Shown piece after piece: positions 542 through 14,662 of a stretch of 14,770 bases of DNA. The notes beneath the pieces were generated by a model, which was not told where the DNA came from, did no database searches, and worked only from the letters and a program-made list of their open reading frames with translations. Position 1 is the first letter of the stretch. The number at the start of each line of letters is the position of its first letter. A program made the translations under genes and the position numbers. The stretch comes from Candidatus Hadarchaeales archaeon (lineage in GTDB: Archaea; Hadarchaeota; Hadarchaeia; Hadarchaeales; WYZ-LMO6). The stretch covers positions 1-14,770 of the forward strand of contig JAWCKR010000023.1 of the NCBI GenBank assembly GCA_038851755.1. Reading direction: 5' to 3'.

Positions 542-545
542 TTTG

Positions 546-1844
546 ATGGAAAAACTGCTGTCGCTGCTGAACGGATGGTGGACGGAGGGGGAGGTCCCGG
601 AGGAGCTGGCAAAGCCCTACGTCCGCGAACCCTTCGCGCGAATCCTCGAACTCCTGAAGTACAAGCAGATGGTGCTGCTGACCGGGCTGCGACGCGTGGG
701 CAAGTCCACGCTGATGTTCCAGACCATCCGCCATCTGCTCCGGGAAGGAATCCCTCCCCGCCACCTCCTCTACTTCTCCTTCGACGAGAGGGTCTCCGAT
801 CCCCTCCAGGTCCTGGACCTCTACTCGAACCTCACGGGGGTCGACTGGCGCAGGGAAAGGATCTACGTGTTCCTGGACGAGGTGCAGAAGCTTCCTGGCT
901 GGGCTTCTAAACTCAAGCTCCTCTACGACAGCTGCCCCAACCTCAAGCTCTTCCTCTCCGGGTCAGGGGGGCCCATGCTCGAGAGGGAGGCCTCGAGCGA
1001 CCTGGCGGGGAGGTACTTCTCGGTACGCGTGGGGCCCCTCTCCCTCAGGGAGTTCTTCGAGATGAGCACCGGGAGGAGGGTGGAGGGGGAGCTGAAGCTC
1101 TGGGAGCCGGAGATGGGCAGGTTCCTGGAGAGGTTCATGGAAAGACCCTTCCCGGAAGTGGTGGGGTGGGAGGAAAGGAGGAAGGTGGAGGAGTACCTGG
1201 GGGAGAGCGTCCTCGAGAAGGTCGTGAGAAAGGATCTCCCGCAGGTCTTCCAGGGGGTCAACCAGGAGGCGCTGATGAGGATGCTCGAAAGCTTCTACTC
1301 CAGTCCAGGCATGTACCTCAGCCCCGACTCGCTCGCAAGGAGCCTGAGGATGAGCAAGAAGAACCTGCTCAGGCATCTCTCCTACCTGGAGTTCTCCTGC
1401 CTGATCCGGGTGGTCAGGAACTACAGGCCCTCCCTCCTCGTCGCCTCCAGGAAGCTCAAGAGGGTTTACCCATATCACTGGGCACTGGTGTGGGGGCTCC
1501 ACCTGGAGGTGGAGAGAGGGAAGCTGCTCGAGAGCATCGTGTCCTCCCTGCTGGAGGCCGAGTACTACTGGAGGGAGGGACCGAAGGAGGTGGACTTCCT
1601 GCTGAGGGAGGAAGGGAGGGTGATTCCCGTGGAGGTGAAGACCGGGGAGGTGGAAGCCGGCGAGCTGAAGGGGATGAGACACTTCATGAGGAGCTACGGG
1701 GCCGGGAGGGGATACGTGATCTATCCCGGGACGGAGGGACGTGTGTGGGAGTTCGAGGAGGGGAGGATCGAGCTGGTGCCCCTGCTGAAGGTTTGTCTGT
1801 ACGGGCGGGCGCTCTTCTCGAAGCCGCTGCCCAGCGAGCCCTAG
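546..1844 (+). CDS. AAA+ ATPase (AAA_14) with wHTH and C-terminal DUF4143/PD-(D/E)xK-like domain
   Basis: Walker A GLRRVGKS, Walker B VFLDEVQ, SGS sensor, LAGR arginine motif, HTH-like SLARSLRMSKKNLLRHLSYLE, and C-terminal YYWR..KEVDF..IPVEVK. ATG at 546 is preferred over TTG at 543. Confidence 0.9.
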   Translation: MEKLLSLLNGWWTEGEVPEELAKPYVREPFARILELLKYKQMVLLTGLRRVGKSTLMFQTIRHLLREGIPPRHLLYFSFDERVSDPLQVLDLYSNLTGVDWRRERIYVFLDEVQKLPGWASKLKLLYDSCPNLKLFLSGSGGPMLEREASSDLAGRYFSVRVGPLSLREFFEMSTGRRVEGELKLWEPEMGRFLERFMERPFPEVVGWEERRKVEEYLGESVLEKVVRKDLPQVFQGVNQEALMRMLESFYSSPGMYLSPDSLARSLRMSKKNLLRHLSYLEFSCLIRVVRNYRPSLLVASRKLKRVYPYHWALVWGLHLEVERGKLLESIVSSLLEAEYYWREGPKEVDFLLREEGRVIPVEVKTGEVEAGELKGMRHFMRSYGAGRGYVIYPGTEGRVWEFEEGRIELVPLLKVCLYGRALFSKPLPSEP

Positions 1845-1879
1845 GACGGGCCGGGCCCCCTTCTTTCCGTGCGGTAGGA

Positions 1880-1886
1880 TTAAAAG
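1880..1886 (+). promoter_or_regulatory. Putative TATA box for a leaderless proteasome beta transcript
   Basis: TTAAAAG ends about 22 nt before the ATG at 1909, in an otherwise GC-rich spacer. Confidence 0.5.
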
Positions 1887-1908
1887 CGGGAGGGGGTGAA
1901 GGGTTAGG

Positions 1909-2523
1909 ATGGAGTACTTCGCGGGGACCATCGTGGGCCTCAGGACTGCGGAGGGAGCGGTGCTGGCCTCCGACACCAGGGCGGTGGGGTACTACCTGGT
2001 GCTGAGCAAGAGGGCCCGGAAGCTCTTCAGGCTGGAGGAGAGGATAGGCGCGGCCTTCTCCGGTGCTCCCGGGGACATCCAGACGCTGGTGAGCCTCCTG
2101 CAGGCGGAGGCCAACCTGTACAGGCTGGAGAACGGGAGATCCATCTCCACGAAGGGACTGGCCCAGGTGGCCTCCAACGTGCTCCAGGGCAGGAGGTGGT
2201 ACCCCTACCTGCTCGAGGGAATCCTCTGCGGCCTGGAGGAGGGAAAGGTCTCCCTCCTCACGCTGGACCCCGTCGGGGGAAGGGTGGAGGAGGAGGACTT
2301 CTCCGCCGGGGGGACGGGTGCGCAGGTGGCCTACGGGGTGCTGGAGAGGAACTACGGGAAGGGACTGAGCCTGCAGGAGGGGAAGAGGCTGGCGGCGGAG
2401 GCCATCAGGACCGCCATAGAGAGGGACGCGGCCACCGGGGACAAGGTGGTGGTCTCGGTCATCGACGAGAAGGGGTACCGGGAACTCACGGACGAAGAGG
2501 TGGACGGGCTCCTGAAGAAGTAG
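1909..2523 (+). CDS. psmB: 20S proteasome beta-type subunit, probably non-catalytic
   Basis: TIVGL..GAVLASDTRA..K.LF, SGAPGDIQ, LDPVGG, GGTGAQVAYGVLE and RDAATG match the Ntn-hydrolase beta-subunit pattern. Confidence 0.93.
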   Translation: MEYFAGTIVGLRTAEGAVLASDTRAVGYYLVLSKRARKLFRLEERIGAAFSGAPGDIQTLVSLLQAEANLYRLENGRSISTKGLAQVASNVLQGRRWYPYLLEGILCGLEEGKVSLLTLDPVGGRVEEEDFSAGGTGAQVAYGVLERNYGKGLSLQEGKRLAAEAIRTAIERDAATGDKVVVSVIDEKGYRELTDEEVDGLLKK

Positions 2524-2547
2524 GCCGGACCACCCAGGCGGAAGGCC

Positions 2548-2853
2548 TCACGTGCTCCTCAGCTTCTTCAGCACCTCCACGAGCGCGTCGATCTCCTTCA
2601 GGGTCCTCATCATCTGCTCGTGGTCCTTCTCCGTCTCCAGCCTGGCCTTCAGCTCCTCCAGCTTCTTCCTCAGCGTCCCCTCCAGTCCCTCCTCCGGGGC
2701 CTCCTTACCCACCTTCCTCTCCCCGCAGGTGGGGCAGAAGACCCTCCCCTCCTTCTCGAAGAGGGGGCCCCTGCACTCCGCGCAGTGGATGGACAGCATC
2801 CTGGCGCCCGAGAAGAGCGCCTCCACCGCCCTGTCGATTTTCCTCTCCGGCAC
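2548..2853 (-). CDS. UPF0148 / autoantigen p27-like Zn-ribbon protein
   Basis: GARMLSIHCAECRGPLF...VFCPTC followed by a coiled-coil tail. The start is probably GTG at 2853 after GGGGGTGG; the ORF track extends it to 2883. Confidence 0.85.
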   Translation of the reverse strand: MPERKIDRAVEALFSGARMLSIHCAECRGPLFEKEGRVFCPTCGERKVGKEAPEEGLEGTLRKKLEELKARLETEKDHEQMMRTLKEIDALVEVLKKLRST

Positions 2854-2906
2854 CCCACCCCCCTCCCCTTTTAACCTTCCCACCTTATTATCCGTGGTGA
2901 TACCCC

Positions 2907-3170
2907 TTGTCCTCCGAGACAGAGGCGAAGCTCAGGAAGGCCAGCGAGCTGCTCTCGAACCTGGCGGGAGACCCCTCGGTGCCCAGGAACATCAGGAGGC
3001 TCGCCACCCAGGCGAAGGAGACCCTGATGAAGAAGGGGGAGGAACCCTCCGTCAGGGCCGCCTTCGCCGCCAGCATGCTGGAGGAGGCCAGCAACGACCC
3101 CAACATCCCCATGCACGCCAGGACCTCCATCTGGAACCTCCTGAGCCTGCTGGAGACCGTGCGTGAATGA
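2907..3170 (+). CDS. UPF0147 family protein
   Basis: DPSVPRNIRR and DPNIPMHARTSIWNLLSLLE signatures. TTG start with a GGTGA Shine-Dalgarno. Confidence 0.9.
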   Translation: MSSETEAKLRKASELLSNLAGDPSVPRNIRRLATQAKETLMKKGEEPSVRAAFAASMLEEASNDPNIPMHARTSIWNLLSLLETVRE

Positions 3171-3255
3171 GCCTCACCCCCGCGAGCGACCGCTCCTGCG
3201 GCCCGGCCCAGCCCTGACCCTCCTCACCCGAGCCCGCGAGTCCCGGTGAGGGACC

Positions 3256-3858
3256 CTAGGGCCGCCTCTCCTCTTCCTCCTCCTCGGCCTTCCTGGAGGG
3301 CGGCCTGACGAAGATCCTGTACCTGTCCTCCCCCTCGAGCTCCTTCACTATCCTGCTGGTGATCATCTCCCTCAGGTCGCCCAGACCCTTCACCCTCTCC
3401 TTCAGGTCCTCCAGGCTGGAGAAGGGGGCCTTCTCCCTCTCCTCCAGGATGCTCCACATCAGCTTCTTCCCTATCCCCGGGATGAGCTCCAGCTGGTGGA
3501 ACCTGGTGGTGACGGGGCCAGCCTTGTTGAAGAACTCCAGGAACCTCTCGGGGTGGCTCTCCACCAGGCGCCTCACCGCGGTGGGCAGCTCGGCCTTGGC
3601 CGCGGAGGTGAGCTCCTCGTGCCCGATCCTCCTCCTGATCCTCTCCACCTTGTCCCTCTCCCCCTTCCCTATGAACACCCTCTCCTGGGGCTCGAACTTC
3701 ACCCCCCTCTTGGGCACCACCTCGAGCAGGGTGAAGAAGTCCTCCCCCAGCAGCTGGACCACGGGCTCCCTCAGGTGCACCGGCCTTGGGTCGTTGGGAT
3801 GACCCTGGGGGAGGAAGTCCAGCACTATCCCGTAATCCTCAAACTTCTTCTGGGCCAA
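3256..3858 (-). CDS. DUF655 predicted nucleic-acid-binding protein (OB fold plus HhH)
   Basis: VLDFLPQG, FTLLE, FFNKAGPVTTRFHQLELIPGIGKK. Sits in its conserved position after rpo4. Confidence 0.92.
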   Translation of the reverse strand: MAQKKFEDYGIVLDFLPQGHPNDPRPVHLREPVVQLLGEDFFTLLEVVPKRGVKFEPQERVFIGKGERDKVERIRRRIGHEELTSAAKAELPTAVRRLVESHPERFLEFFNKAGPVTTRFHQLELIPGIGKKLMWSILEEREKAPFSSLEDLKERVKGLGDLREMITSRIVKELEGEDRYRIFVRPPSRKAEEEEEERRP

Positions 3859-3871
3859 AACTCTCCCTTCC

Positions 3872-4210
3872 TCACTTCCTGTGCTGGTTCAGCAACTCCA
3901 GGAGCTTCCCTATCTCCTCCGGGGTGAGCCTCCTCCTCTCCTTGGAGAGCAGGAGCTCCACCTCCTCCGCCTTCTCGGGCATGAGGTCCACCAGCTGCAC
4001 CGCCGCGGCCTCCCTGAGCTCGAAGGTCTTCACCAGCTCCTCCACCAGCTTCGCGGCCTCCTCGGGCTTAACCCTGGCGAACTTCTGGGCGTAGTCGTAG
4101 TCCAGGCGCTGCTCGTACCTGAGCTCCCTCTCCTTCTTTATTCCCTCCAGCAGCTCCAGGACCTCCGCCAGCGTGACCGGCCTCTCCGACACCACTCCGG
4201 AACCTATCAT
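3872..4210 (-). CDS. rpo4: DNA-directed RNA polymerase subunit F (Rpo4)
   Basis: VTLAEV..L, YEQR..DYAQKF, AVQLVDLMP. ATGA overlap with rpl21e. Confidence 0.93.
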   Translation of the reverse strand: MIGSGVVSERPVTLAEVLELLEGIKKERELRYEQRLDYDYAQKFARVKPEEAAKLVEELVKTFELREAAAVQLVDLMPEKAEEVELLLSKERRRLTPEEIGKLLELLNQHRK

Positions 4211-4473
4211 GGACCCACCCTTCTCAGGTGCTCCGGCAGTATAATAATTCTTTTCATTTTGCCCCCGTCCGTGATCTCCACCTCGTACGCTCTACCCCTC
4301 CTGCCCCTCACCGTTCCCACCCTTCCCTGGTACCGCGGGTGGGGCCTTCCCTCCTGCACGCTCGGCTCTATCCTGAGGACCACCCTCTCCCCCTCCTCGA
4401 ACCCCCCCATCATCCTCCCGGCCGTGACCGCCTCCCCCTTCCTCTTCGACAGTTTCTTCCTGGCCTTGGTCAA
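4207..4473 (-). CDS. rpl21e: 50S ribosomal protein eL21
   Basis: GERVVLRIEPSVQEGRPHPRYQGRVGTV, DGGKMK..I.PEHL. TTG start after GGTGGGAGG; the start position is uncertain. Confidence 0.92.
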   Translation of the reverse strand: MTKARKKLSKRKGEAVTAGRMMGGFEEGERVVLRIEPSVQEGRPHPRYQGRVGTVRGRRGRAYEVEITDGGKMKRIIILPEHLRRVGP

Positions 4474-4512
4474 CCTCCCACCGGAAAGAGTGGAGCCCCG
4501 TACCTCAAAAAG

Positions 4513-5865
4513 CTATCTCCTCTTCTCCTTCTCCAGCTCCCTCACCAGCTTCCCCAGCGGGCCTCCCCTGGGGAGCCTGCCCTTCCCCAGGGTCTTCAGC
4601 ATCCTCTTCATGAGCTCGTACTGCCTCAGGAGCTCCCTCACCTCCGCCTCGCTCGTCCCAGAGCCCTTCGCCACCCTCCTGATCCTGGAGGCGTTCAGGA
4701 TCTCCGGGTTGTCCAGCTCCTGCGGGGTCATCGACTGCATGATCACCCTGAACCGCTTCAGCTTCTCCTCCCCCACCCTGAGCTGGTCCTCCGAGAGGGA
4801 CACTCCCAGCCCCGGGATGAGGCCGGCGATCTTCTTCAGGGGACCCATTTTGCTCATGGCCTCCAGCTGCTCGTAGACCGTCCTCAGGGTGAGCTTCCCC
4901 CTCAGGGCCTCCTTCACCCCCTCCTCCCCCTTCACCCCCATCGTCTCCTCCACCCTCCTCAGGAAGGTCTCCAGGTCGCCCATCCCCAGGAGCCTGGCCA
5001 TGAACCTGGGGGGGTCGAAGGGCTCCAGGTCCTCGAGGTGCTCCCCCGTCCCTATGAACTTGATGGGCGCCCCTGTGGCCGCCACCGCCGAGAGGGCCCC
5101 GCCCCCCTTGGCCGTTCCGTCCAGCTTGGTCACCAGGATGGAGCCCAGGGGGGTCACCCTCCTGAAGGCCTCCGCCTGGTCCCTGGCCTGCTGGCCGAGC
5201 GTGCCGTCCACCACCAGCATGACCTCGTCGGGCCTGATCGCCTCGGCCATCCTCCTCATCTCCTCCATCAGTCCCCTCTCCTCCTTGTGCCTCCCGGCCG
5301 AGTCCACCAGGACCAGGTCGCACCTCCTCCCGAGCTCCTCCACCCCCCTCCTGGCCAGCCCCACGGGGTCCTTCTCCCCGGGTTCACCCCAGACCTCCAC
5401 CCCCGCCCTCTGCCCAAGCTGGGAGAGCTGGTCGTAGGCCCCCGCCCTGAAGGTGTCGGCGCACACCACCCCCACCCTGAAGCCCTTCCTCTTGAAGTGG
5501 TAGGCGAGCTTCGCCACGGAGGTGGTCTTCCCGCTCCCCTGCAGGCCCACCATCAGCACCACGGTGGGGGCGCCCTTCTTCAGCTCGAGGGAGGAGGGCT
5601 TCCCCAGGAGACCGGAGAGCTCCTCGTACACCAGCTTCACCGCGTGCTCCCTCCTGCTCATGCCCGGGGGAGGGCTCTCCTTCTTCAGGCGCTCCTCGAG
5701 CCTCTTCGTCAGGTCCAGGACCAGCTGCACGTTCACGTCCGCCTGCAGGAGGGCCCTCTGGAGGTCCCTCACCAGCTCCCTCACCGTCTCCTCGTCCACG
5801 TGGGGGGCCCTGGCGAGCCTCTGGAGCGCCCCGTGCAGGGCCTTCCCCAGCTTCTCCAGGACCAT
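4513..5865 (-). CDS. srp54: Signal recognition particle protein SRP54
   Basis: ALLQADVN, GLQGSGKTT, DTFR, DSAGRH, TKLDGTAKGGG, RLLGMGD, and M-domain SMTPQE..SRIRRVAKGSG. Confidence 0.97.
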   Translation of the reverse strand: MVLEKLGKALHGALQRLARAPHVDEETVRELVRDLQRALLQADVNVQLVLDLTKRLEERLKKESPPPGMSRREHAVKLVYEELSGLLGKPSSLELKKGAPTVVLMVGLQGSGKTTSVAKLAYHFKRKGFRVGVVCADTFRAGAYDQLSQLGQRAGVEVWGEPGEKDPVGLARRGVEELGRRCDLVLVDSAGRHKEERGLMEEMRRMAEAIRPDEVMLVVDGTLGQQARDQAEAFRRVTPLGSILVTKLDGTAKGGGALSAVAATGAPIKFIGTGEHLEDLEPFDPPRFMARLLGMGDLETFLRRVEETMGVKGEEGVKEALRGKLTLRTVYEQLEAMSKMGPLKKIAGLIPGLGVSLSEDQLRVGEEKLKRFRVIMQSMTPQELDNPEILNASRIRRVAKGSGTSEAEVRELLRQYELMKRMLKTLGKGRLPRGGPLGKLVRELEKEKRR

Positions 5866-5868
5866 CCC

Positions 5869-6456
5869 TCACCTCCCCAGCCAGCGGAGGACCCTCTCCC
5901 TCATCCTCCCCTGCACCTCCTCCACCGACCCCCTTCCCTCCACCCTCTCCACCTCCCCCCTCCTGGCCAGCTCCAGGTACTTCCTCCTCACCCTCCTCTG
6001 GAAGGAGAGGTCCCTCTCGAAGAGGTCCAGGTCCCTTCCCCCCATCCTCCTCAGGCACTCCTCCGGCGGAAGGTCGAGGAAGAGGGTCAGACCGGGGCGG
6101 GGGGAGAACCTGTTGACCTCCCTCACCCACTCCTCCCTCAGGCCCCTGGCGCACTGGTAGGCGATGGAGGAGTAGAGGCCCCTCTCGCTCACCACCATCC
6201 TCCCCTCCCTGAGGGCGGGAAGGACCAGGGAGGAGGCGTGCTCCATGCGGTCGGCGGCGAAGAGGAGGGCCTCCACCTCCGCGGGCATGCCCTCCCTCAG
6301 TCCCCTCCTGATGAGCCTCCCGATGGGGCCCCTGGTGGGCTCGGCCGTGCGCAGGACCCTGTACCCCAGGGAGCGCAGCCAGCCCGCCAGCAGCGAGGTC
6401 TGGGTGCTCTTGCCGCAGCCGTCCAGACCCTCGACGCACAGCAGCCTTCCCTTCAT
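5869..6456 (-). CDS. tmk: Thymidylate kinase
   Basis: EGLDGCGKST P-loop, LLFAADR, SSIAYQ. ATG at 6456 overlaps the upstream TGA (ATGA). Confidence 0.95.
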   Translation of the reverse strand: MKGRLLCVEGLDGCGKSTQTSLLAGWLRSLGYRVLRTAEPTRGPIGRLIRRGLREGMPAEVEALLFAADRMEHASSLVLPALREGRMVVSERGLYSSIAYQCARGLREEWVREVNRFSPRPGLTLFLDLPPEECLRRMGGRDLDLFERDLSFQRRVRRKYLELARRGEVERVEGRGSVEEVQGRMRERVLRWLGR

Positions 6457-7595
6457 GCGGGCCACCCCGGCAGGGGGAAGGTCAGGGGCAGGAGGAGGAA
6501 GGTCGCGAGGGCCAGGAGGCGGTGGGAGGGGGAGAGGGGCGAGAGGTCGTCCAGCACCCCGGCGTGAGGGCGACCGAAGAAAAACAGGATGAGGAGGCCC
6601 CAGAGCCAGAAGGGATACTCCGGGAGCAGGAAGCCGGAGAAGAGCAGGCCCAGGCCCATCCCCCTGGTGAGGGTCTGGTGGCCCTCGGCGCTCAGGAGCC
6701 CCCTGGCCACGTGCCCCCCGTCCAGCTGCCCGGCGGGGAGAAGGTTCAGGAAGGTTATGACCATCATCACCGAGCCGGAGAGGACGAGCGGGTTGTCCAG
6801 CCCCCCTCCCAGCGCGGACCTCAGGAGGAGGAGAACGGGAGTGGCGAAGACCGGCGCCTCACCCGACCCCCCCAGCGCCAGGCCGAGGGAGCTGATGACG
6901 AGGGCGAGGGCGAAGCCCAGCAGGGGCCCCGAGGCCCCCACCTCCACCAGCGCGTCCCTCGTGGGGATGGGGCTTTTCACCCTGACCACCGCCCCCAGCG
7001 TGCCCAGGTAGGTGGGCGCGGGGATGAAGTAGGGGGGGGAGGCCTCCACCCCGTTCCTCCTGGCGGCGAGGCCGTGCCCGAGCTCGTGGGAGGCCAGGAT
7101 CACCATCAGGCTCGTGGAGAAGAGGAGGGCCTTCACCGTGTCACCGAAGATCAGGAGATAGCTGAAGCCGAAGGTGGAGAGGAGCGTGAGGACCAGGAGC
7201 AGCAGGTGGAGGTAGGGTCTCGCCTCCTTCCGGGGCGGGAGGGAGAGGACCCTGAGGTAAAGGGTGCCTCCCACCCTCCGCAGGGCGGCCACCTTCCCCC
7301 CCGACCTCAGCTTCCGCAGCAGCCTGGAGAAGGAGGAACCCGGTCTGGCCTCCACCTCGAACTCCCCCCCTTCCTTCCCCAGCACGAAGTCCACCACCGA
7401 GAACTCCTTCTCCACCGAGGAGAGCACTCCCCTCCACTCCCCGGGAAGTTCCTTTCCCGTCACCGCCATATCCCCCCTGCACCTGGGGCACCTCCCCTTC
7501 AGCAGCTCCCCCAGCCCCAGCGAGGACATCTGGTACTCGGTGTGCCCGCAGGAGAGGCACTCCACCCTGGCCACGGGGATCTCCCTTTCCGCCAT
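6453..7595 (-). CDS. Site-2 protease family (M50) intramembrane metalloprotease with N-terminal Zn ribbon
   Basis: HELGH, PYFIP, GTLGA, GPLLG, NLLPAGQLDGGH and multiple hydrophobic segments. N-terminal CLSC...CPRC. Confidence 0.93.
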   Translation of the reverse strand: MAEREIPVARVECLSCGHTEYQMSSLGLGELLKGRCPRCRGDMAVTGKELPGEWRGVLSSVEKEFSVVDFVLGKEGGEFEVEARPGSSFSRLLRKLRSGGKVAALRRVGGTLYLRVLSLPPRKEARPYLHLLLLVLTLLSTFGFSYLLIFGDTVKALLFSTSLMVILASHELGHGLAARRNGVEASPPYFIPAPTYLGTLGAVVRVKSPIPTRDALVEVGASGPLLGFALALVISSLGLALGGSGEAPVFATPVLLLLRSALGGGLDNPLVLSGSVMMVITFLNLLPAGQLDGGHVARGLLSAEGHQTLTRGMGLGLLFSGFLLPEYPFWLWGLLILFFFGRPHAGVLDDLSPLSPSHRLLALATFLLLPLTFPLPGWPA

Positions 7596-7615
7596 CTTCA
7601 GGCTTGGTCGGGCCG

Positions 7616-7628
7616 ATAAGTAAATATT
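7616..7628. promoter_or_regulatory. AT-rich core of the divergent promoter between the M50 operon and thrS
   Basis: ATAAGTAAATATT is the only AT-rich stretch in the 62-bp divergent spacer. Confidence 0.5.
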
Positions 7629-7657
7629 CCTTCCCGGAGACTCCAGCCGGTGTTCGG

Positions 7658-9505
7658 ATGCGCCTGCTCCTGATCCACGCCGACCTGCTGGAGTTCAGGG
7701 CCCTCCAGCGGACCCCCGTGGCGGAGGAGGTGGAAGAGGGGAAGAAGGTGGGGAAAGCGGAGGAGGTGCTGGTGGCCTTCACCGCCGTGGAGGAGGAGGA
7801 CGGTGGGAACGTGGAGGCGGTGGTCTCCAGGGCCTCGGAGGAGATCCTGGACCTGTGCGGGAAGCTGGGGGTGAGGAGGGTGGCGGTCTACCCCTACGCC
7901 CACCTCAGTCCCTCCCTTTCCTCCCCTGAGGTGGCCGTGCGGGTGCTGAGGGGGATGAGGGAGAGGCTGTCGGAGGAAGGACTGGAGGTCCTGCACGTCC
8001 CCTTCGGATGGTACAAGGCCTTCACCCTGAGGTGCAAGGGCCACCCCCTGAGCGAGCTCTCCAGGGTGATCTCCCCCGAGCCCTCCGCCCCTCCCCGGGA
8101 GGAGGAAGAGAGGGGCAGGCTGGCGGTCCTTTCCCCCGACGGCAGGGAGGAGGAGGTGGACCTGGAGGACCTCGAGTCCTGCAGGCTGCTGGAGGAGAAC
8201 CCCCTGCTCAGGCAGTACCTGGTCGCCGAGAGGGGCGGGGGGACCGGGAAGGAGCCCGCCCACCTCTCCCTCATGCGCAGGCTGGAGCTGGTGGACTACG
8301 AGCCCGCCAGCGACGTGGGGCACTTCCGCTTCTACCCCAAGGGTGAGCTCGTCAAGTCCCTGCTGGAGGACTACGCCGCCCAGCTCGCCAGGGGCGTGGG
8401 GGCCCTCTTCATCCAGACCCCCCTCCTGTACAGGCTGGAGGAAAAGGACATAGGGGCCCAGGCCGCCAAGTTCCTGGCCAAGGACTACAGGGTGAAGCTC
8501 CCGGGGAAGACCCTCCTGCTGAGGTTCGCGGGTGACTTCGGCCTCTTCAGGATGATGAAGGAGGCCCAGCTCAGCTACAGGCAACTGCCCCTCCGCGTCT
8601 TTGAGCTCTCCCCCTCCTTCAGGCTGGAGCAGAGCGGGGAGTGCGTGGGGCTCAAGAGGCTGCGCTCCTTCACCATGCCCGACCTGCACTGCTTCTGCTC
8701 CGACCTGCCCCAGGCGCTGGAGGAGTACCGGCGCCTCTTCCGCCTCTTCCTGGAGCCCCTGCGCCGGATGGAGCTCCCCTACGCCCTGGTGCTCAGGGTG
8801 GTGGAGGAGTTCTACAGGGAGCACAGGGAGTTCGTGCTGGAGCTGGTGAGGGAGGAGGGGAGGCCCGCCCTGGTCGAGGTCCTCCCGGAGAGGAAGCACT
8901 ACTGGGTGATGAAGCACGAGCTCCAGTTCCTGGACCCGCAGGGGGGTAGCTCCCAGCTCTCCACCGTCCAGCTGGACCTGGAGGACTCGGAGAGGTACGG
9001 GATCCTGTACACGGACGAGGGGGGAAGGAAGAGGGGATGCGTGATCCTGCACTCCTCCATGGGCTCCATAGAGCGCTGGATCTACGCCCTGCTGGAGAAC
9101 GCGGAGAGGAAGAGGGAGGAGGGGAAGGCGCCCTCCCTGCCCCTCTGGCTCTCCCCCACCCAGGTGAGGCTGGTCCCCGTGGGAGACCGTCACCTGGAGC
9201 GCTGCCTGAGGGACGCGGAAGTCCTGGAGGGGAAGGGGGTGAGGACGGACGTGGACGACAGGGGCTGGACGGTGGCCAAGAAGATCAGGGAGGCGGAGAG
9301 GGAGTGGGTCCCCTACATAGCCGTGGTGGGCGACAGGGAGCTCGAGAGCGGGAAGCTGTCGGTGAGGGTGAGGGGCTCGGGCGTGAGGGAGTACGGGGTG
9401 GAGGAGCTCGCGGAGGAGGTCAGGAAGGCGTGTGAAGGCTTCCCCCACCGTCCCCTGTCCCTCCCCAGCAGGCTCTCCCTGCGTCCCATCTTCGTGGGCT
9501 CCTAA
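7658..9505 (+). CDS. thrS: Threonine--tRNA ligase, archaeal type with N-terminal editing domain
   Basis: MRLLLIH, VYPYAHLS, PFGWYKAF..CKGHPLSE, motif 2 FRLEQSGE..GLKRLRSFTMPDLH, motif 3 GSIER, and anticodon domain PLWLSPTQVR. ATG at 7658. Confidence 0.97.
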   Translation: MRLLLIHADLLEFRALQRTPVAEEVEEGKKVGKAEEVLVAFTAVEEEDGGNVEAVVSRASEEILDLCGKLGVRRVAVYPYAHLSPSLSSPEVAVRVLRGMRERLSEEGLEVLHVPFGWYKAFTLRCKGHPLSELSRVISPEPSAPPREEEERGRLAVLSPDGREEEVDLEDLESCRLLEENPLLRQYLVAERGGGTGKEPAHLSLMRRLELVDYEPASDVGHFRFYPKGELVKSLLEDYAAQLARGVGALFIQTPLLYRLEEKDIGAQAAKFLAKDYRVKLPGKTLLLRFAGDFGLFRMMKEAQLSYRQLPLRVFELSPSFRLEQSGECVGLKRLRSFTMPDLHCFCSDLPQALEEYRRLFRLFLEPLRRMELPYALVLRVVEEFYREHREFVLELVREEGRPALVEVLPERKHYWVMKHELQFLDPQGGSSQLSTVQLDLEDSERYGILYTDEGGRKRGCVILHSSMGSIERWIYALLENAERKREEGKAPSLPLWLSPTQVRLVPVGDRHLERCLRDAEVLEGKGVRTDVDDRGWTVAKKIREAEREWVPYIAVVGDRELESGKLSVRVRGSGVREYGVEELAEEVRKACEGFPHRPLSLPSRLSLRPIFVGS

Positions 9506-9556: not shown

Positions 9557-10432
9557 CTACCCGTACCAGCCCAGGCCCAGCTCCCTGCAGCGCTCGTCCA
9601 CTTCCCGCTGGATCCGCATCACTTCCTCCTCCGTGAGGTGCGAGAACCTCCCCTGCAGCCTCAGGTACTCCCTCACCGGCTTCCTTCTCTCAGGCCTGAA
9701 GGTCAGCCTGATGCTCCCCCCCTCCGCTTCCCAGAGGATCCAGCAGCCCGTCTCCACCGCCAGCCTGGCCAGCCTCACGGTGAGGGAGGAATCATACCTC
9801 CAGCCCGTGGGGCAGGGACAGTGGACATGGAGGTAGGATGGCCCCTCCACCCCCGCCGCCTTCCTGACCTTCCAGAGGAGGTCCCTGGGGTATCCCACGG
9901 AGGCCGTGGCCACGTAGGGGATGCGGTGGGCGAGGGCTATGGAGGGCATGTCCTTCTTGGGTCTGTCCTCCCCCCTCACGACCTTCCCCGCGGGCGTGGT
10001 GGTGGTCCAGGCACCGAAGGGGGTGGTCCCGCTCCGCTGTATGCCCGTGTTCATGTAAGCCTCGTTATCGGTGCACACGTACAGAACGTTGTGGCCCCTC
10101 TCCATCATCCCCGAGAGGGCCTGGAGCCCTATGTCCGCCGTCCCCCCGTCGCCTCCTATGGCCACCACCTTCACCCCCTTCCTTCCCAGCCTCTTCAGGG
10201 CTGCCTCCACTCCGGAGGCTATGGCGGCCGCGTTCTCGAAGGCCCCGTGGACCCAGGGGACCCTCCAGGCGGTCTGGGGATAGGGGGTGGTGACGACCTC
10301 CATGCAGCCCGTGGCCTCCACCACGATCACCTCCTTTCCCAGGGCCTTCAGGATCAGCCTCAGCGCCATCACCTCGCCGCAGCCAGGGCAGGCACGGTGC
10401 CCGGGCGCCAGCAGCTCCTCGGCAGGTATCAC
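9557..10432 (-). CDS. porB: Pyruvate/2-oxoacid:ferredoxin oxidoreductase beta subunit
   Basis: [15 protein letters not shown], ThDP motif GGDG...[23 protein letters not shown] at 10432 overlaps the porA stop (GTGA). Confidence 0.93.
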
Positions 10433-11604
10433 TCCACCATCTCCCTCTTCAGCCCCACCCAGGTGGGGTTCTCGCCCACCCTCCCCTCCTCCGCCTCCCT
10501 CCGGAGGGTTCTGACTATCCCCTCCAGGTCCTCCGCCGTCACGTCCCTGCTCCCCAGGCCAAGGATGAAGTCCTGGAAGAGGGGCCTCCTGCCCTCGTTG
10601 GCGAAGGCCGCCACGGTGTCCGTGTAGAGGGCCCCCATCCACCCGGTGGAGATATCCTTCTCCAGCACCCCCACCACCCTGGCGCCAGCGAGGGCCTCCA
10701 CCACCTCCCGGTCAGGGAAGGGACGGTAAAGGGTGAGCTTCACCAGACCCACCCTCTCACCCCTTTCCCTGCACCTGTCCACGACCTCTTTAGCCGTGCC
10801 GGCCAGGGAACCCATGGTGAAGAGGAGGACTTCCGCCCCCTCCGTCCTGTACTCCTCCAGGATTCCGTACCTTCTGCCGAACCTCTTTCCGAACTCCTCC
10901 GCCACCCTCACGAACTCTTCCTTCGCCCTCCTCATGTCCCGGTGCTGCATGTACCTCGCCTCCGTGTAAACCTCCGGGACTCCCACCGGCCCCAGGGTGA
11001 GGGGGCGGCCAGGGTCGAGCTTGAGGGGAGGGGAGTAAGGGGGGAGGAAGGAGTCCACCTCGGCCTGCTCCGGCACCTCCACGGCCTCGGAGGTATGGGA
11101 GAGGATGTACCCGTCATAGCAGACCATGGTGGGGAGGGAGAGAAGCTCGGAAAGGCGGAAGGCCTGGAGCAGGAGGTCCAGGATCTCCTGGTTGTTCTCG
11201 CAGTAGAGCTGGATCCAGCCGCTGTCCCTAACGGCGAGGGAGTCCTGCTGGTCGTTCCAGATGCTCAGGGGTGCGGAGAGGGAGCGGTTGGCGTTGGCCA
11301 TCACCACGGGTAGCCTCATGCCGGAGACGACGTACAGGATCTCGCTCATCAGCATGAGGCCCTGGGAGGAGGTGGCGGTGAAGGCTCTTGCGCCCGTGGC
11401 GGAGGCCCCCAGGCAGACGCTGAGGGCGCTGTGCTCCGACTCCACCTTCACGAACTCCGCCTCCAGCTCCCCGTCGGCCACGTACTTCGCCAGGGTCTCC
11501 ACCACCACCGTCTGGGGGGTGATGGGGTAGGCGGAGACCACCTGGACCCTGGCCAGCTTGGCCGCCAGGGCGGCCGCCTCGTTCCCGTTGAGCAGCTGCC
11601 TCAC
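10429..11604 (-). CDS. porA: Pyruvate/2-oxoacid:ferredoxin oxidoreductase alpha subunit
   Basis: [43 protein letters not shown] at 11604 overlaps the upstream stop. Confidence 0.93.
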
Positions 11605-12761
11605 GCTCCCTCCTCCACCATCCTTATCACGCCCCTCGGGCACTCCTGGGCGCAGATCCCGCACCCCTTGCAGTAGTCCTCGTCCGTCCGGTACTCGGTC
11701 TCCCCCTCCTTCACGATGCAGCCCTCGGGGCAGAGGATCCAGCAGTTGTCGCACCCGTTGCACGTGCCGCAGCTGAAGCACCTCCCCGCCTCCGCCCTGA
11801 CCTCCTCCCCCGAGCTCGGTCCGGCGGGTCCCCCCACCCTGCGGGAAAAGGTGAAGTAGTCCAGCTTCACCTCCTCCAGGCCCAGCACCGGAGCAGGGGA
11901 TGTCTTCCCAGGTTCCTCCCCCCTCAGGAAGGCACCCACACCGTGGGCGGTCCTCCTCCCGGAGCCTATGGCCCAGGCCACGCCCCTCTCCACACCCTCC
12001 GCCAGCTCCCCTGCCACGAAGACCCCCTCCACCCCCGTTCGGCCCCCTTCGTCCGCTCCCACCTTCTCACCCTTCCTCACCAGCCCGCCCGCGAGCCCCT
12101 CCGGAAGAGGGTTCCTTCCCGTGGCCAGCACCACGGCCTCATAACCTCTCAGTTCATCCCTCCCCTTCACCGCCTTTCCTCTCTCCACCACCACCCCCAT
12201 CCCCTTCAGGGAGGAGAGCTCCTCCTCCAGGACGGCGCGGGGGAGATGGTGCTCCGGCATGCCCCAGGCCATCAGCCCCCCCTCTCTCTCCCTGGCCTCG
12301 AAAACCACCACCTCGTGCCCTTCGAGCCTCAGGTGGTAAGCGCATGAGAGGCCGGACGGACCCGCCCCCACCACCGCCACCCTGTGTCCGGTCTCCCTGC
12401 CTGGTTTCACCCTCCAGCCCCTCTCCCTCCCCAGATCGCCCAGGAAGCGCTCTATGTTCCTCACGGCCAGGGGCTCATCGAAGCCTCCCCTGTTGCAGGC
12501 GGCCTCGCAGAAGCGGTAACACACCCTCCCGCACACGGAGGGGAAGGGGTTGGTCCGCCTGAGGAGCCTCCAGGCCTCCTCCAGCCTTCCCTTTTCCACC
12601 AGGTAGAGGATTTTGGGGATGTCGTTGCCCACGGGACAGGCCGAGACGCAGGGGGCAGTCCTTCCCTCCCTCACCGGACGAAGGTACCTCCATCCCGAGG
12701 TCAGGTAATCCGAGCTGCTCCCGGGACGGTCTATCACTATCCCCGGCAGAAGCTTGCTCAC
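11601..12761 (-). CDS. PorD-like delta subunit fused with a GltD/NfnB/DsrL-like Fe-S flavoprotein module lacking the NAD(P)-binding domain (386 aa)
   Basis: PorD N-terminus PGSS..Y.TSGWR..RPV; PCVSACP; NPFPSVCGRVC...CEAACNR; FAD motif VVGAGPSG; LATG; VFVAGE; EAGRCFSC; C-terminal CNGCDNCWILCP and CKGCGICAQECP. GTG at 12761 overlaps the porG stop. Confidence 0.88.
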   Translation of the reverse strand: MSKLLPGIVIDRPGSSSDYLTSGWRYLRPVREGRTAPCVSACPVGNDIPKILYLVEKGRLEEAWRLLRRTNPFPSVCGRVCYRFCEAACNRGGFDEPLAVRNIERFLGDLGRERGWRVKPGRETGHRVAVVGAGPSGLSCAYHLRLEGHEVVVFEAREREGGLMAWGMPEHHLPRAVLEEELSSLKGMGVVVERGKAVKGRDELRGYEAVVLATGRNPLPEGLAGGLVRKGEKVGADEGGRTGVEGVFVAGELAEGVERGVAWAIGSGRRTAHGVGAFLRGEEPGKTSPAPVLGLEEVKLDYFTFSRRVGGPAGPSSGEEVRAEAGRCFSCGTCNGCDNCWILCPEGCIVKEGETEYRTDEDYCKGCGICAQECPRGVIRMVEEGA

Positions 12762-13288
12762 TCCCTGACCTCCTCGTAGGCCCTCCTCATGGCCTTCATG
12801 TTCCTCTCCCCCACCTTCCCCTTGAAATATCCTCCCACCACCCTGAGCACCGACTCCAGGCTCACCTCTCCGGAGGCCCTCACGTAGGCGCCCAGCATGG
12901 CCATGTTGGTGATGGGGGCACCGATCTCTTCCACCGCTATGGAGGTGGCATCCACCCACGCCACCCTTCCCGCCTTCAGATTTCCAGGCTTCTCCCTGGC
13001 GTTCAGGACGAGGAGGCCACCCGGCTTCAGGCCCTCCGCGACGTTCACGGCACGCAGGAGGGTGTGGTCCAGCACCACCACGTGATCGGGCTCATAGATC
13101 TGGCTCCTGATCCTCACGGGCTTGGTATCGAGCCTGGCGAAGGCCACCACGGGCGCTCCCCTCCTCTCCGCCCCGAAGAAGGGGAAGGCCTGGGCGTATT
13201 TCCCCTCCAGAAAAGCGGCCTCGGCGAGCATCCGGGCCGCCGTAACAGCCCCCTGTCCGCCCCTTCCGTGGAACCTTATCTCGATCAC
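12758..13288 (-). CDS. porG: Pyruvate/2-oxoacid:ferredoxin oxidoreductase gamma subunit
   Basis: [36 protein letters not shown]. Confidence 0.94.
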
Positions 13289-13453: not shown

Positions 13454-14662
13454 TCAGGCGTAGGCCGAGAAGCCCTTTCCGAGGATGGAGTACCCCGTGA
13501 TCAGCTTCATGATCTCGCTGGTTCCGTCCGGGACCGTCTGCATCCTGGCATCGCGGAAGTACCTCTCCAGGGGCATCTCGTCGGAAAGACCGTTCCCTCC
13601 GAAGATCTGCATGGCCATGTAGGTCACCTTCACCGACGCCTCCCCTCCGTACACCTTCGCCATGGCTGAGAGCCTCCTGGCGTCAGGGTCGCCCTTCATG
13701 ATGGCGTGCACCGCCCTGTATCCCAGCAGCCTGGCCGTCTCTATCAGCACGTTCATCTTGTACAGCATCTCCTGAATCAGCTGGAACTTCCCTATGGGCT
13801 TCCCGAACTGCACGCGCTCCTTGGCGTACTCCACAGCCTTCTCGAAGGCCGCCTCCGCTATCCCCACGGACATCAGGCACATCCCTGCTCTGGGCATGGT
13901 GAGCATGGCCGTGACCGGGGAGACTGAGGTCAGGAGCTTCATGTACCCCTCAGAGACCGGAAGCCCCCCCTGCTCGAAGGCCCTCTGCACCAGCACCATC
14001 ATCTCGTTGTTCTGGGGCACCTTGCAGTTGTCGAAGAACATCTCACCCGTGGGGGAGGCCTTCCACCCTATCTTGTGCAGCTCGTTCGTTTCCCAGCCGG
14101 AAACCTCCTTCTCCACCAGGAAGAAGGTCTCGGCGCCCGTCTCGCTGCTCTTGGCCCCCACCCAGGCGGTGTCGGCGATGGGCGCGTTGCTTATCCAGGT
14201 CTTCCTCCCGTTGATGACGTAGTGGTCCCCTTCCAGTTTGGCCGTGGTCTTCAGGTTGGAGGTGTCGCAGCCGGCCTCGGGCTCCGTCTCGGCGAAGCAC
14301 CCTATGAACTCGCACCTCTCCATCCTGCGCAGGATCCTGTCCTTCACGTCCTCGTCGGCGAAGGGGGCGAAGAGGGCCGGGATGGCCCCCATCCCGAACA
14401 GGGGAAGCAGGCTGGGCCACACCCTTCCCACCTCCTCGGCGAAGAGGCAGAAGACCATGGGGTCCATCATCGACCTGATGTTCTCCGGGTCGAGGCCTAT
14501 CCCTATGGTCTTGAACTTCTTCATGATCTCCACGGCCTCCTGTCTGGTGAGCGGTCCTTCCCTGTCCCTCTTGTTCACGTAAGACTCCGGGAAGTGCTTG
14601 TTCAGAAACTCCCTCAGGGTGTCCTTGAACATCCGCTGGTCCTCGGTCAGTTCAAAATCCAT
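13454..14662 (-). CDS. Acyl-CoA dehydrogenase family protein
   Basis: MDFELTEDQ, FAETEPEAGCD, INGRKTWISNA, YAKERVQFGKPIGKFQLIQ, QIFGGNG, ERYFRDAR..DGTSEI. GGAGG Shine-Dalgarno upstream. Confidence 0.96.
   Translation of the reverse strand: MDFELTEDQRMFKDTLREFLNKHFPESYVNKRDREGPLTRQEAVEIMKKFKTIGIGLDPENIRSMMDPMVFCLFAEEVGRVWPSLLPLFGMGAIPALFAPFADEDVKDRILRRMERCEFIGCFAETEPEAGCDTSNLKTTAKLEGDHYVINGRKTWISNAPIADTAWVGAKSSETGAETFFLVEKEVSGWETNELHKIGWKASPTGEMFFDNCKVPQNNEMMVLVQRAFEQGGLPVSEGYMKLLTSVSPVTAMLTMPRAGMCLMSVGIAEAAFEKAVEYAKERVQFGKPIGKFQLIQEMLYKMNVLIETARLLGYRAVHAIMKGDPDARRLSAMAKVYGGEASVKVTYMAMQIFGGNGLSDEMPLERYFRDARMQTVPDGTSEIMKLITGYSILGKGFSAYA

Follow-up and report, generated by a model that had tools for sequence, protein, structure and literature searches.

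An NfnB-like flavin module without its NAD(P)-binding domain in the delta subunit of a hadarchaeotal pyruvate oxidoreductase

Introduction

When a flavoprotein module loses the whole domain that binds nicotinamide adenine dinucleotide or its phosphate (NAD(P)), what is the protein that carries it, and what can the remaining half with its flavin adenine dinucleotide (FAD) site still do? This question is raised by a minus-strand gene at positions 11601 to 12761 of a 14,770-nucleotide stretch of DNA from a hot-spring archaeon, a member of Candidatus Hadarchaeales. The stretch, referred to here as the window, is an entire contig (JAWCKR010000023.1, contig C23) of a genome of 1.25 Mb that is present as 26 contigs and is 93% complete. 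A preliminary description, prepared from the sequence alone, recorded the absence of the domain and regarded the gene as the best candidate in the window for an undescribed system, with the identity of the protein missing. What the gene encodes is the delta subunit of a pyruvate-type 2-oxoacid:ferredoxin oxidoreductase (POR) with four subunits, in the form of a PorD into which an NfnB/GltD-like module has been inserted between positions 31 and 32 of the PorD profile. Rather than a separate system, the protein is an instance of a variant that recurs within a widespread fusion family, itself uncharacterised. Members of this family that retain the NAD(P) domain are designated long forms, and those without it short forms.

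Four-subunit pyruvate oxidoreductases are textbook ferredoxin enzymes, and an intact NfnB-like module in the delta subunit would wire pyruvate oxidation directly to NAD(P)+. NCBIfam includes a model of the long-form family, whose members are common across many phyla. Searches of the full-text literature found no description of PorD fused to a GltD/NfnB-like module, long or short, so that a large family with such a flavin module in a POR delta subunit appears undescribed in the literature searched. In the available portion of a 2026 review of pyruvate:ferredoxin oxidoreductase diversity (PMC13768988), the term 'glutamate synthase' does not appear, and 'FAD' is mentioned a single time, in the role of an artificial acceptor.

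Identity and architecture of the protein

The gene and its parts are as follows, with residue numbers referring to the encoded protein.

11601..12761, minus strand: delta subunit gene, 386 amino acids (aa), PorD carrying an NfnB/GltD-like insert without the NAD(P) domain
12663..12743, minus strand: N-terminal PorD arm, residues 7-33, TSGWRYLRPV, PorD_Arch positions 5-31
12408..12659, minus strand: NfnB-type Fe-S domain, residues 35-118, Cys 38, 42, 77, 81, 85 and 89 (Pfam Fer4_20, E 4.4e-19)
12117..12389, minus strand: FAD half-domain part 1, residues 125-215, with GAGPSG, E155, GG161-162, WGMPEHHLP (H172) and LATG
12114..12143, minus strand: junction of the 147-aa deletion, break point ambiguous within residues 207-215, R216 next
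11907..12116, minus strand: FAD half-domain part 2, residues 216-285, with GVFVAGE (E252) and the AIGSGRR helix
11769..11906, minus strand: linker, residues 286-331, with a 14-aa deletion site (~residue 313) and RCxxC (C328, C331)
11610..11768, minus strand: PorD dicluster domain, residues 332-384 (PorD_Arch 32-84, E 2.9e-18; TIGR02179; Pfam Fer4 families)

Both ends of the protein match PorD. When the first 45 aa alone were compared with the NCBIfam model PorD_Arch, residues 7-33 aligned to positions 5-31 with a weak score (E 3.4e-4, 20.6 bits), and the corresponding arm of a sister long form matches positions 4-38 (E 2.1e-7). The C-terminal dicluster domain has two CxxCxxCxxxCP motifs (Cys 334, 337, 340, 344 and 364, 367, 370, 374). 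Between these ends, Pfam recognises Fer4_20 at residues 35-115 and only the first ~45 positions of Pyr_redox_2, at residues 127-174, before reporting the dicluster domain at 333-381. Scores of the whole protein fall below the cut-offs of the PorD models (TIGR02179 and NF040684; 57.1 vs 60.05 and 65.7 vs 120), as expected when the PorD profile is split by an insert. The best NCBIfam model, NF009410 (PRK12771, 566 positions), matches in two stretches with 315.2 bits, under its cut-off of 516; P0012, a 566-aa long form, scores 603.9 bits. From its operon position, the overlap of its gene with its neighbours and the lack of any other PorD in the genome, the delta subunit would be expected to assemble with the alpha, beta and gamma subunits into a ferredoxin relay.

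There are 16 candidate Cys ligands. Eight belong to the PorD clusters, and C38, C42, C77, C81, C85, C89, C328 and C331 would serve two NfnB-type clusters. The Cys columns of the Fe-S domain are invariant across long and short forms. The inserted module is circularly permuted relative to NfnB, in that it begins at PC38xxxC42P and has the motif EAxRC328xxC331 placed after the flavin domain; this motif, EAxRCxxC, opens NfnB according to PMC6405883. C328 and C331 resemble the opening RCxxC of that NfnB cluster motif. Within residues 327-344 (11769-11783, 11730-11762) there is an unbroken run of six Cys, C328-x2-C331-x2-C334-x2-C337-x2-C340-x3-C344P, the last four of which are the first PorD motif.

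An AlphaFold2 model of the protein (predicted confidence pLDDT 93.0, pTM 0.90) superposes at residues 32-334 on the GltD-like domain of StnC (8oh5_C, residues 98-568) with a Z score of 35.2 and a root-mean-square deviation of 2.1 Å over 297 residues, and at residues 32-281 on Pyrococcus furiosus NfnB (5jfc_L, residues 46-472) with a Z score of 27.8 and a deviation of 1.9 Å over 248 residues. The StnC superposition takes in the RCxxC motif, extending to residue 334, and supports the predicted assignment of C328 and C331 to the NfnB-type clusters.

Extent and position of the deletion

Alignment with 120 long forms shows that none of the 11 short forms from Hadarchaeota has a residue in any conserved column of the second Rossmann (NAD(P)) domain, with its GGGNxAxD motif. 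Residues 34-217 of the delta protein align to residues 43-236 of Thermotoga maritima NfnB and residues 227-282 to residues 408-462, with nothing between, such that ~170 residues of NfnB are replaced by ~9. The motif YEAVVLATG (residues 207-215, positions 12117-12143) runs straight into RNPLPEGLAGGLVRKGEKVGADEGGRTGVEGVFVAGE. With offsets fixed on flanking motifs, the protein differs from the 544-aa long form of genome G058 (family f5) by one deletion of 147 aa and one of 14 aa.

The break point of the 147-aa deletion is ambiguous within residues 207-215 because the sequences AVFIGVG and SVIAAIG are homologous. What follows the join corresponds to what follows the second of the two motifs in long forms. 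The distance from G215 to the Gly of GE (G251) is 36 residues, a spacing that is also the most frequent one between the second AxG motif and GD (76 of the 179 long forms, out of 300, in which both motifs were found). When the 27 residues after the join were compared, without gaps, with the 27 residues after the second motif, the best mean score was obtained at register 0 (-6.2), with -19 to -35 at shifted registers and -22.8 against the stretch after the first motif. Free pairwise alignment to the 300 long forms placed the largest gap immediately after G215 in 60 cases and scattered it in the others, and gap placement was taken from the register and fixed-offset tests in its stead. The whole NAD(P) domain has thus been lost cleanly and in frame between two homologous strand-Gly ('ATG') motifs. 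The preliminary description had proposed a loss of exactly this kind, on the grounds that YEAVVLATG continues without a GGGN motif, and the alignments to long forms and NfnB, the gap columns and the spacing and register after the join bear out each of these points; the position that it gave for the motif, 12118-12144, was one base off.

The 14-aa deletion takes out the linker stretch LGGEERIKTFKEIE. It lies at ~11823 (residue 313; compare L055:1495-3129) and removes the linker motif RxxxFxE(V/I). The F and E of this motif are conserved in 91% and 96% of long forms, respectively; both are missing from the window protein and replaced by other residues in the Anaerolineae short forms described below, which suggests that the linker motif may work together with the NAD(P) domain.

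Distribution and conservation of the short form

A search of 66 genomes of the phylum for delta-like proteins detected the short form in all six genomes of the family to which the window belongs (f1), one of which, in genus g1, holds the gene only in pieces. These proteins are 77-88% identical to the window protein in genus g1 and 59% identical in genus g2. The long form, recognised as two matched stretches, is present in two of the three genomes of the sister family f5. In one of them, G058, it has a full Pyr_redox_2 domain and is also encoded between gamma and alpha. In the remaining families of the phylum the delta query matched only NfnB-like or Stn-like proteins. Ten protein clusters from several sources, 376-390 aa in length, share 58-88% identity with the window protein. 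The loss of the domain goes back to the ancestor of archaeal family f1.

The ratio of nonsynonymous to synonymous substitution rates (dN/dS) of the delta gene is 0.23, 0.22 and 0.32 in three pairs, a level like that of other subunits. Gamma gives 0.18-0.21, alpha 0.215 and beta 0.10, and the acyl-CoA dehydrogenase gene adjoining the operon gives 0.12-0.15. Calculated per domain, dN/dS of delta is 0.15-0.34, except for the PorD domain of the closest pair, in which there is no amino-acid change. The FAD remnant of the short forms was compared with that of long forms at matched identity of the Fe-S and PorD parts, in pairs drawn from related sequences; it is as conserved in the short forms, with values of 0.757 vs 0.782 (22 and 95 pairs) and 0.825 vs 0.849 (17 and 68 pairs).

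Contigs assembled by Logan from the hot-spring metagenome runs X1 and X2 cover 11649-12900 with one to two differences and no indel, and bridge the junction, although both runs are from one study, possibly that of the source sample, and by themselves would be weak support. Run X3 has a coverage hole at 12049-12113. That the gene is an assembly artefact or a private decaying pseudogene, as the preliminary description cautioned, is ruled out for practical purposes by the comparative data, since the short form is present in all six family genomes and 10 protein clusters, has dN/dS of 0.22-0.32 and is bridged by the X1 and X2 contigs without an indel. The recurrence of the deletion in other genomes under purifying selection, which the same description proposed as a check, is established.

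Independent loss in other lineages

Two Anaerolineaceae genomes have forms of 445-447 aa encoded in a gamma-X-alpha-beta operon. A search with one of these identified ~33 clusters, 410-454 aa in length and 48-98% identical, that are labelled Chloroflexota/Anaerolineae or 'delta subunit'. In a tree of 52 sequences and 458 columns, from which the NAD(P) columns were excluded, the Hadarchaeota short forms are a clade (Shimodaira-Hasegawa-like approximate likelihood ratio support, SH-aLRT, 99) that is sister to the long forms P0012 and P0013 (99), and the Anaerolineae short forms cluster with the long form P0155 (100). The minimum number of state changes on this tree is two, and constraining all short forms to group together is 123 log-likelihood units worse (p 8e-5 in the approximately unbiased test). 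Chloroflexota (Anaerolineae) have lost the NAD(P) domain independently of the archaeal family.

The Anaerolineae short forms (P0122-P0154, 410-454 aa) belong to the same family and have the same operon position as the window protein. They differ in that their loss has other end points, the long linker is kept and the FAD motifs are eroded. Among 27 of these sequences, 24 have Glu and 3 have Gln at the third Gly of GxGxxG. The 'ATG' Gly survives in 15%, with mostly Asp or Glu in the others, and no sequence retains the GD Asp. The 15 Cys columns invariant in long forms are all intact. At matched divergence, the FAD remnant changes more quickly than that of long forms (0.662 vs 0.782).

An exhaustive search returned 15945 matches at E <= 0.001. 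Further short forms, with other end points and no NAD(P) core, are present among the best 150 of these (P0240, P0244, P0278, P0280, P0345, P0366, P0259, P0356 and P0375), and GD is lost in P0244, P0278, P0366 and P0345. The NAD(P) domain has been removed repeatedly and the four-cluster chain always kept.

There are also relatives of 712-784 aa (P0214, P0218, P0250, P0276, P0287, P0288, P0300, P0301, P0308, P0318, P0362, P0380 and P0381) in which the match to the window protein starts near residue 185-260. Two of them carry Pfam POR (PF01558), and to judge from their sequences these relatives appear to be gamma subunits fused to a flavo-delta subunit.

State of the flavin site

Thirty columns of the FAD domain that are conserved in at least 85% of the 120 long forms were scored in the 11 Hadarchaeota short forms. 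In all 11, 21 of the 30 are kept, including G132, G134, G137, E155, G161, G162, A209, G215 and G251; two more are kept in 10 of the 11 and another two in 8. All 15 Cys columns invariant in long forms are also kept. Within the Hadarchaeota clade, the ADP-binding portion of the FAD site remains constrained.

The changes noted in the preliminary description are real. It had reported that GxGxxG (here GAGPSG) and all Cys motifs remain, that GD has become GE and that WGMPEHHL stands in place of YGIPxxRL with loss of a flavin-proximal Arg, and the sequence and its alignment with long forms agree on every point. The GD Asp is replaced by E252 (12006-12008), and the Arg by H172 (12246-12248), a column that is His in eight, Leu in two and Arg in one of the 11 short forms. 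By alignment, this column corresponds to Arg187 of T. maritima NfnB, which hydrogen-bonds the flavin N5 (PMC6405883). Both changes postdate the deletion, because the form in genus g2 (P0011-like) retains the Arg and GD.

The N5 Arg column is His in 8/11 Hadarchaeota and 22/27 Anaerolineae (P0122-P0154) short forms despite the independence of the two domain losses. This shared replacement may be convergence or may be a cheap single-base change; as convergence, it is the most suggestive unexplained detail of the comparison.

Operon and genome context

The neighbouring genes of the operon, and the gene that adjoins it upstream, are listed below.

12758..13288, minus strand: POR gamma gene (Pfam POR, E 1.2e-42; NCBIfam PRK08534, 248.9 bits, above the cut-off of 225)
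10429..11604, minus strand: POR alpha gene (Pfam POR_N and PFOR_II; NCBIfam PorA_Arch, 522.7 bits, under the 550-bit cut-off)
9557..10450, minus strand: POR beta gene, start approximate (Pfam TPP_enzyme_C; NCBIfam PorB PRK11865, 469 bits, above the cut-off of 405)
13454..14662, minus strand: acyl-CoA dehydrogenase gene adjoining the POR operon upstream, a neighbourhood kept within the genus only

The order is gamma, delta, alpha, beta, all on the minus strand, with the delta gene in the usual position of porD. Its GTG start overlaps the TGA stop of gamma, and its own TGA stop overlaps the GTG start of alpha, each in a GTGA motif. Searches of the genome with the four subunits (tblastn) detected no second gamma or beta, and the only further match to alpha was a distant stretch, 28% identical, on contig C3; the same stretch, within a 644-aa frame, is the sole other match to POR_N. 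No stand-alone PorD reaches the family cut-off in the genome, and the best PorD-like stretch is the delta gene itself. The POR encoded in the window is therefore the only porGDAB-type 2-oxoacid:ferredoxin oxidoreductase found in this 93%-complete genome. A canonical NfnAB pair is encoded on contig C21 (L001:476-2778), in which the NfnA-like gene scores 426 bits for PRK06222 (cut-off 220) and the NfnB-like gene 633 bits for TIGR01316 (cut-off 472).

The acyl-CoA dehydrogenase gene is upstream of the operon in three genomes of one genus (the window, L009 and L010). In genus g2 this position has an unannotated 246-aa open reading frame (ORF), and in family f5 (G058) an NfnB-like gene. The genome also has an EtfAB pair on contig C2 and eight acyl-CoA dehydrogenase matches, and given these and the different upstream genes in g2 and f5, the dehydrogenase was dropped as a specific electron partner of the delta subunit.

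The RNA run X6 matches only short, conserved ferredoxin-motif pieces at 11500-11672, which derive from other contigs, and is uninformative on expression.

Relationship to known systems

The closest relatives of the delta protein are the long PorD/NfnB-like fusions of NF009410 (PRK12771, 'NAD(P)-binding protein'), named '2-oxoacid:acceptor oxidoreductase delta subunit' by the Joint Genome Institute (JGI). They hold the gamma-X-alpha-beta position in many bacterial phyla, are 49-51% identical to the delta protein over the shared parts and have the same PorD arm, Fe-S domain, FAD motifs, RCxxC linker, dicluster domain and gene position between gamma and alpha. In comparison, the delta protein is without the 147 aa of the NAD(P) Rossmann domain and the 14 aa of the linker, and has His for the N5 Arg and GE for GD. 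A canonical PorD (TIGR02179, NF040684; 9bt4_G) shares the two CxxCxxCxxxCP motifs, the N-terminal arm and the gene position, whereas the delta protein has ~300 residues inserted between profile positions 31 and 32.

The best matches in sequence and fold are the GltD-like modules in StnC and in the large subunits of NfnABC (8oh5_C, 9n5u_A and 9bov_A). As in the delta protein, these are inserted in a larger Fe-S protein and have the permuted order, starting with 'PC...CP' and being followed by RCxxCG. The StnC module is reported to hold two [4Fe-4S] clusters and FAD (PMC10482914). These modules bind NADPH and are located in NuoG-like proteins of transhydrogenases, whereas the delta module is without the NADPH domain and is located in PorD. 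NfnB, the large subunit of NADH-dependent ferredoxin:NADP+ oxidoreductase (4ylf_B, 5jca_L), has the same Fe-S domain and FAD half-domain, with the Arg187 equivalent in the same GIPxxRLP loop as H172. Unlike NfnB, the delta protein has no NADPH domain, no adjacent NfnA, His in place of this Arg and a permuted first Cys motif.

A possible analogue is phenylglyoxylate:NAD+ oxidoreductase with its separate flavoprotein subunit. A literature search on that enzyme yielded nothing useful, and the window subunits match its NCBIfam models only under their cut-offs.

Proposed function and alternatives

The ancestral subunit would have been a PorD with an NfnB/GltD-like cassette containing two [4Fe-4S] clusters, FAD and an NAD(P) domain, and this long form presumably passed electrons from pyruvate directly to NAD(P)+. 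In the common ancestor of family f1, excision of 147 aa would have removed the autonomous NAD(P) domain; the FAD half-domain would have closed up, and the 14-aa linker motif, conserved only alongside the NAD(P) domain, would also have been lost. In the resulting enzyme, pyruvate would be oxidised at thiamine pyrophosphate, and its electrons would reach ferredoxin through the cluster of the beta subunit and then the PorD pair. The pair of NfnB-type clusters and a probably bound FAD would remain as a side branch, a buffer or a docking surface. NAD(P)H presumably could not bind to delta, and exchange between ferredoxin and NAD(P)H would be left to the separate NfnAB.

The persistence of the FAD remnant may be accounted for by its interlock with PorD, as the run of six Cys would serve both sets of clusters and pieces of PorD are located at both ends of the insert. 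Being interlocked in this way, the insert would have the NAD(P) domain as its only cleanly removable piece, and the recurrence of the same loss would follow from this. Taken as a whole, a ferredoxin-linked, NAD(P)-blind POR with a four-cluster relay, a delta flavin that is probably bound and a flavin role left unassigned has in our view an even chance of being correct.

Several points weigh against it. The ancestral coupling to NAD(P)+ is deduced from domain content, and no paper that characterises the long form was found. That ferredoxin accepts the electrons and that the extra clusters form a side branch are steps that we infer, and binding of FAD and of the clusters is predicted from motifs and a cofactor-free model. 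Five flavin-proximal columns are altered in most of the 11 short forms, namely I168 (M in 7), R172, G250, D252 (E in 9) and A271, and in StnC the substitution R239A of the equivalent Arg nearly abolished activity (PMC10482914); in consequence the flavin site may be altered or dead. The pairs behind the dN/dS and matched-identity values, moreover, come from related sequences and are not independent, and strict conservation of the remnant may equally mean a new flavin function rather than entrenchment.

Two other explanations each have some, though clearly less, claim to be considered. In one, the flavin is gone or going and the remnant is a scaffold with a two-cluster wire that lengthens the PorD chain, a possibility that the preliminary description raised as degeneration into a wire. 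This fits the independent Anaerolineae clade, where the FAD site is eroded with all Cys invariant and the remnant evolves faster (0.662 vs 0.782); GD has also been lost from the short forms P0244, P0278, P0366 and P0345, and in the Hadarchaeota clade both the N5 Arg and the GD Asp are replaced. In the latter clade, however, such degeneration is undetectable. There, 21 of the 30 FAD columns are kept in 11/11 sequences from two genera, down to 58% identity, without detectable relaxation, and contact with the flavin could be preserved by His and Glu, both of them conservative substitutions. For the window protein this explanation is correspondingly improbable, at about one-fifth the weight of certainty.

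With similar reserve we regard the opposite explanation, that the flavin exposed by the loss of the domain is a new port through which two electrons pass to polysulfide, quinone, F420 or a partner flavoprotein. The degree of constraint on the FAD half-domain matches that in relatives competent for NAD(P), the changes cluster at positions proximal to the isoalloxazine, Arg is replaced by His in both independent clades (8/11 and 22/27) and an acyl-CoA dehydrogenase gene is directly upstream in three genomes of the genus. A new acceptor of this sort (F420, quinone, sulfur or a partner protein) was advanced in the preliminary description, but the protein has acquired no additional domain, and outside the genus there is no conserved partner gene, the upstream genes in g2 and f5 being different. 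The genome, furthermore, has its own EtfAB and eight matches to acyl-CoA dehydrogenases. The change from Arg to His requires a single transition and could recur by chance, and the Anaerolineae keep the His although their FAD motifs are eroded, so that it need not serve the flavin. A more specific version, in which an open flavin port operates besides ferredoxin with a non-nicotinamide acceptor and the replacement of the N5 Arg by His is an adaptation to it, is more doubtful still.

It is very unlikely that a separate gene supplies the NAD(P) domain in trans and so retains the coupling to NAD(P)+. Domain splits are common, and with the genome 93% complete the gene could be on a missing contig, but no direct support for such an arrangement was found. 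A search of the genome with the 566-aa P0012 identified no stand-alone NAD(P) domain; it returned the window gene, a full-length NfnB-like gene, a match to P0012 residues 138-442 in a 334-aa frame, and partial matches in frames of 258, 391 and 705 aa. The overlapping genes of the operon also leave no room for a gene encoding the domain.

The family provides a series for study, from the long form, through the short form with an intact FAD site (Hadarchaeota), to the short form with an eroded site (Anaerolineae). This series could show the roles of the flavin and of the extra clusters in an oxidoreductase, how a flavoprotein with two Rossmann domains tolerates excision of one, and why interlocked cofactor sites become entrenched. 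It also carries a warning for annotation, as short-form genes should be labelled neither 'NAD(P)-binding' nor 'glutamate synthase small subunit'.

Other features of the window

A plus-strand ORF of 220 aa at 11900-12562 is a Pro-rich antisense frame of the GC-rich delta gene. The region from 543 to 9505 contains archaeal housekeeping genes, encoding an AAA_14/DUF4143 ATPase, a proteasome subunit, a DUF655 protein, SRP54, thymidylate kinase, an M50 peptidase and a threonyl-tRNA synthetase with the archaeal editing domain.

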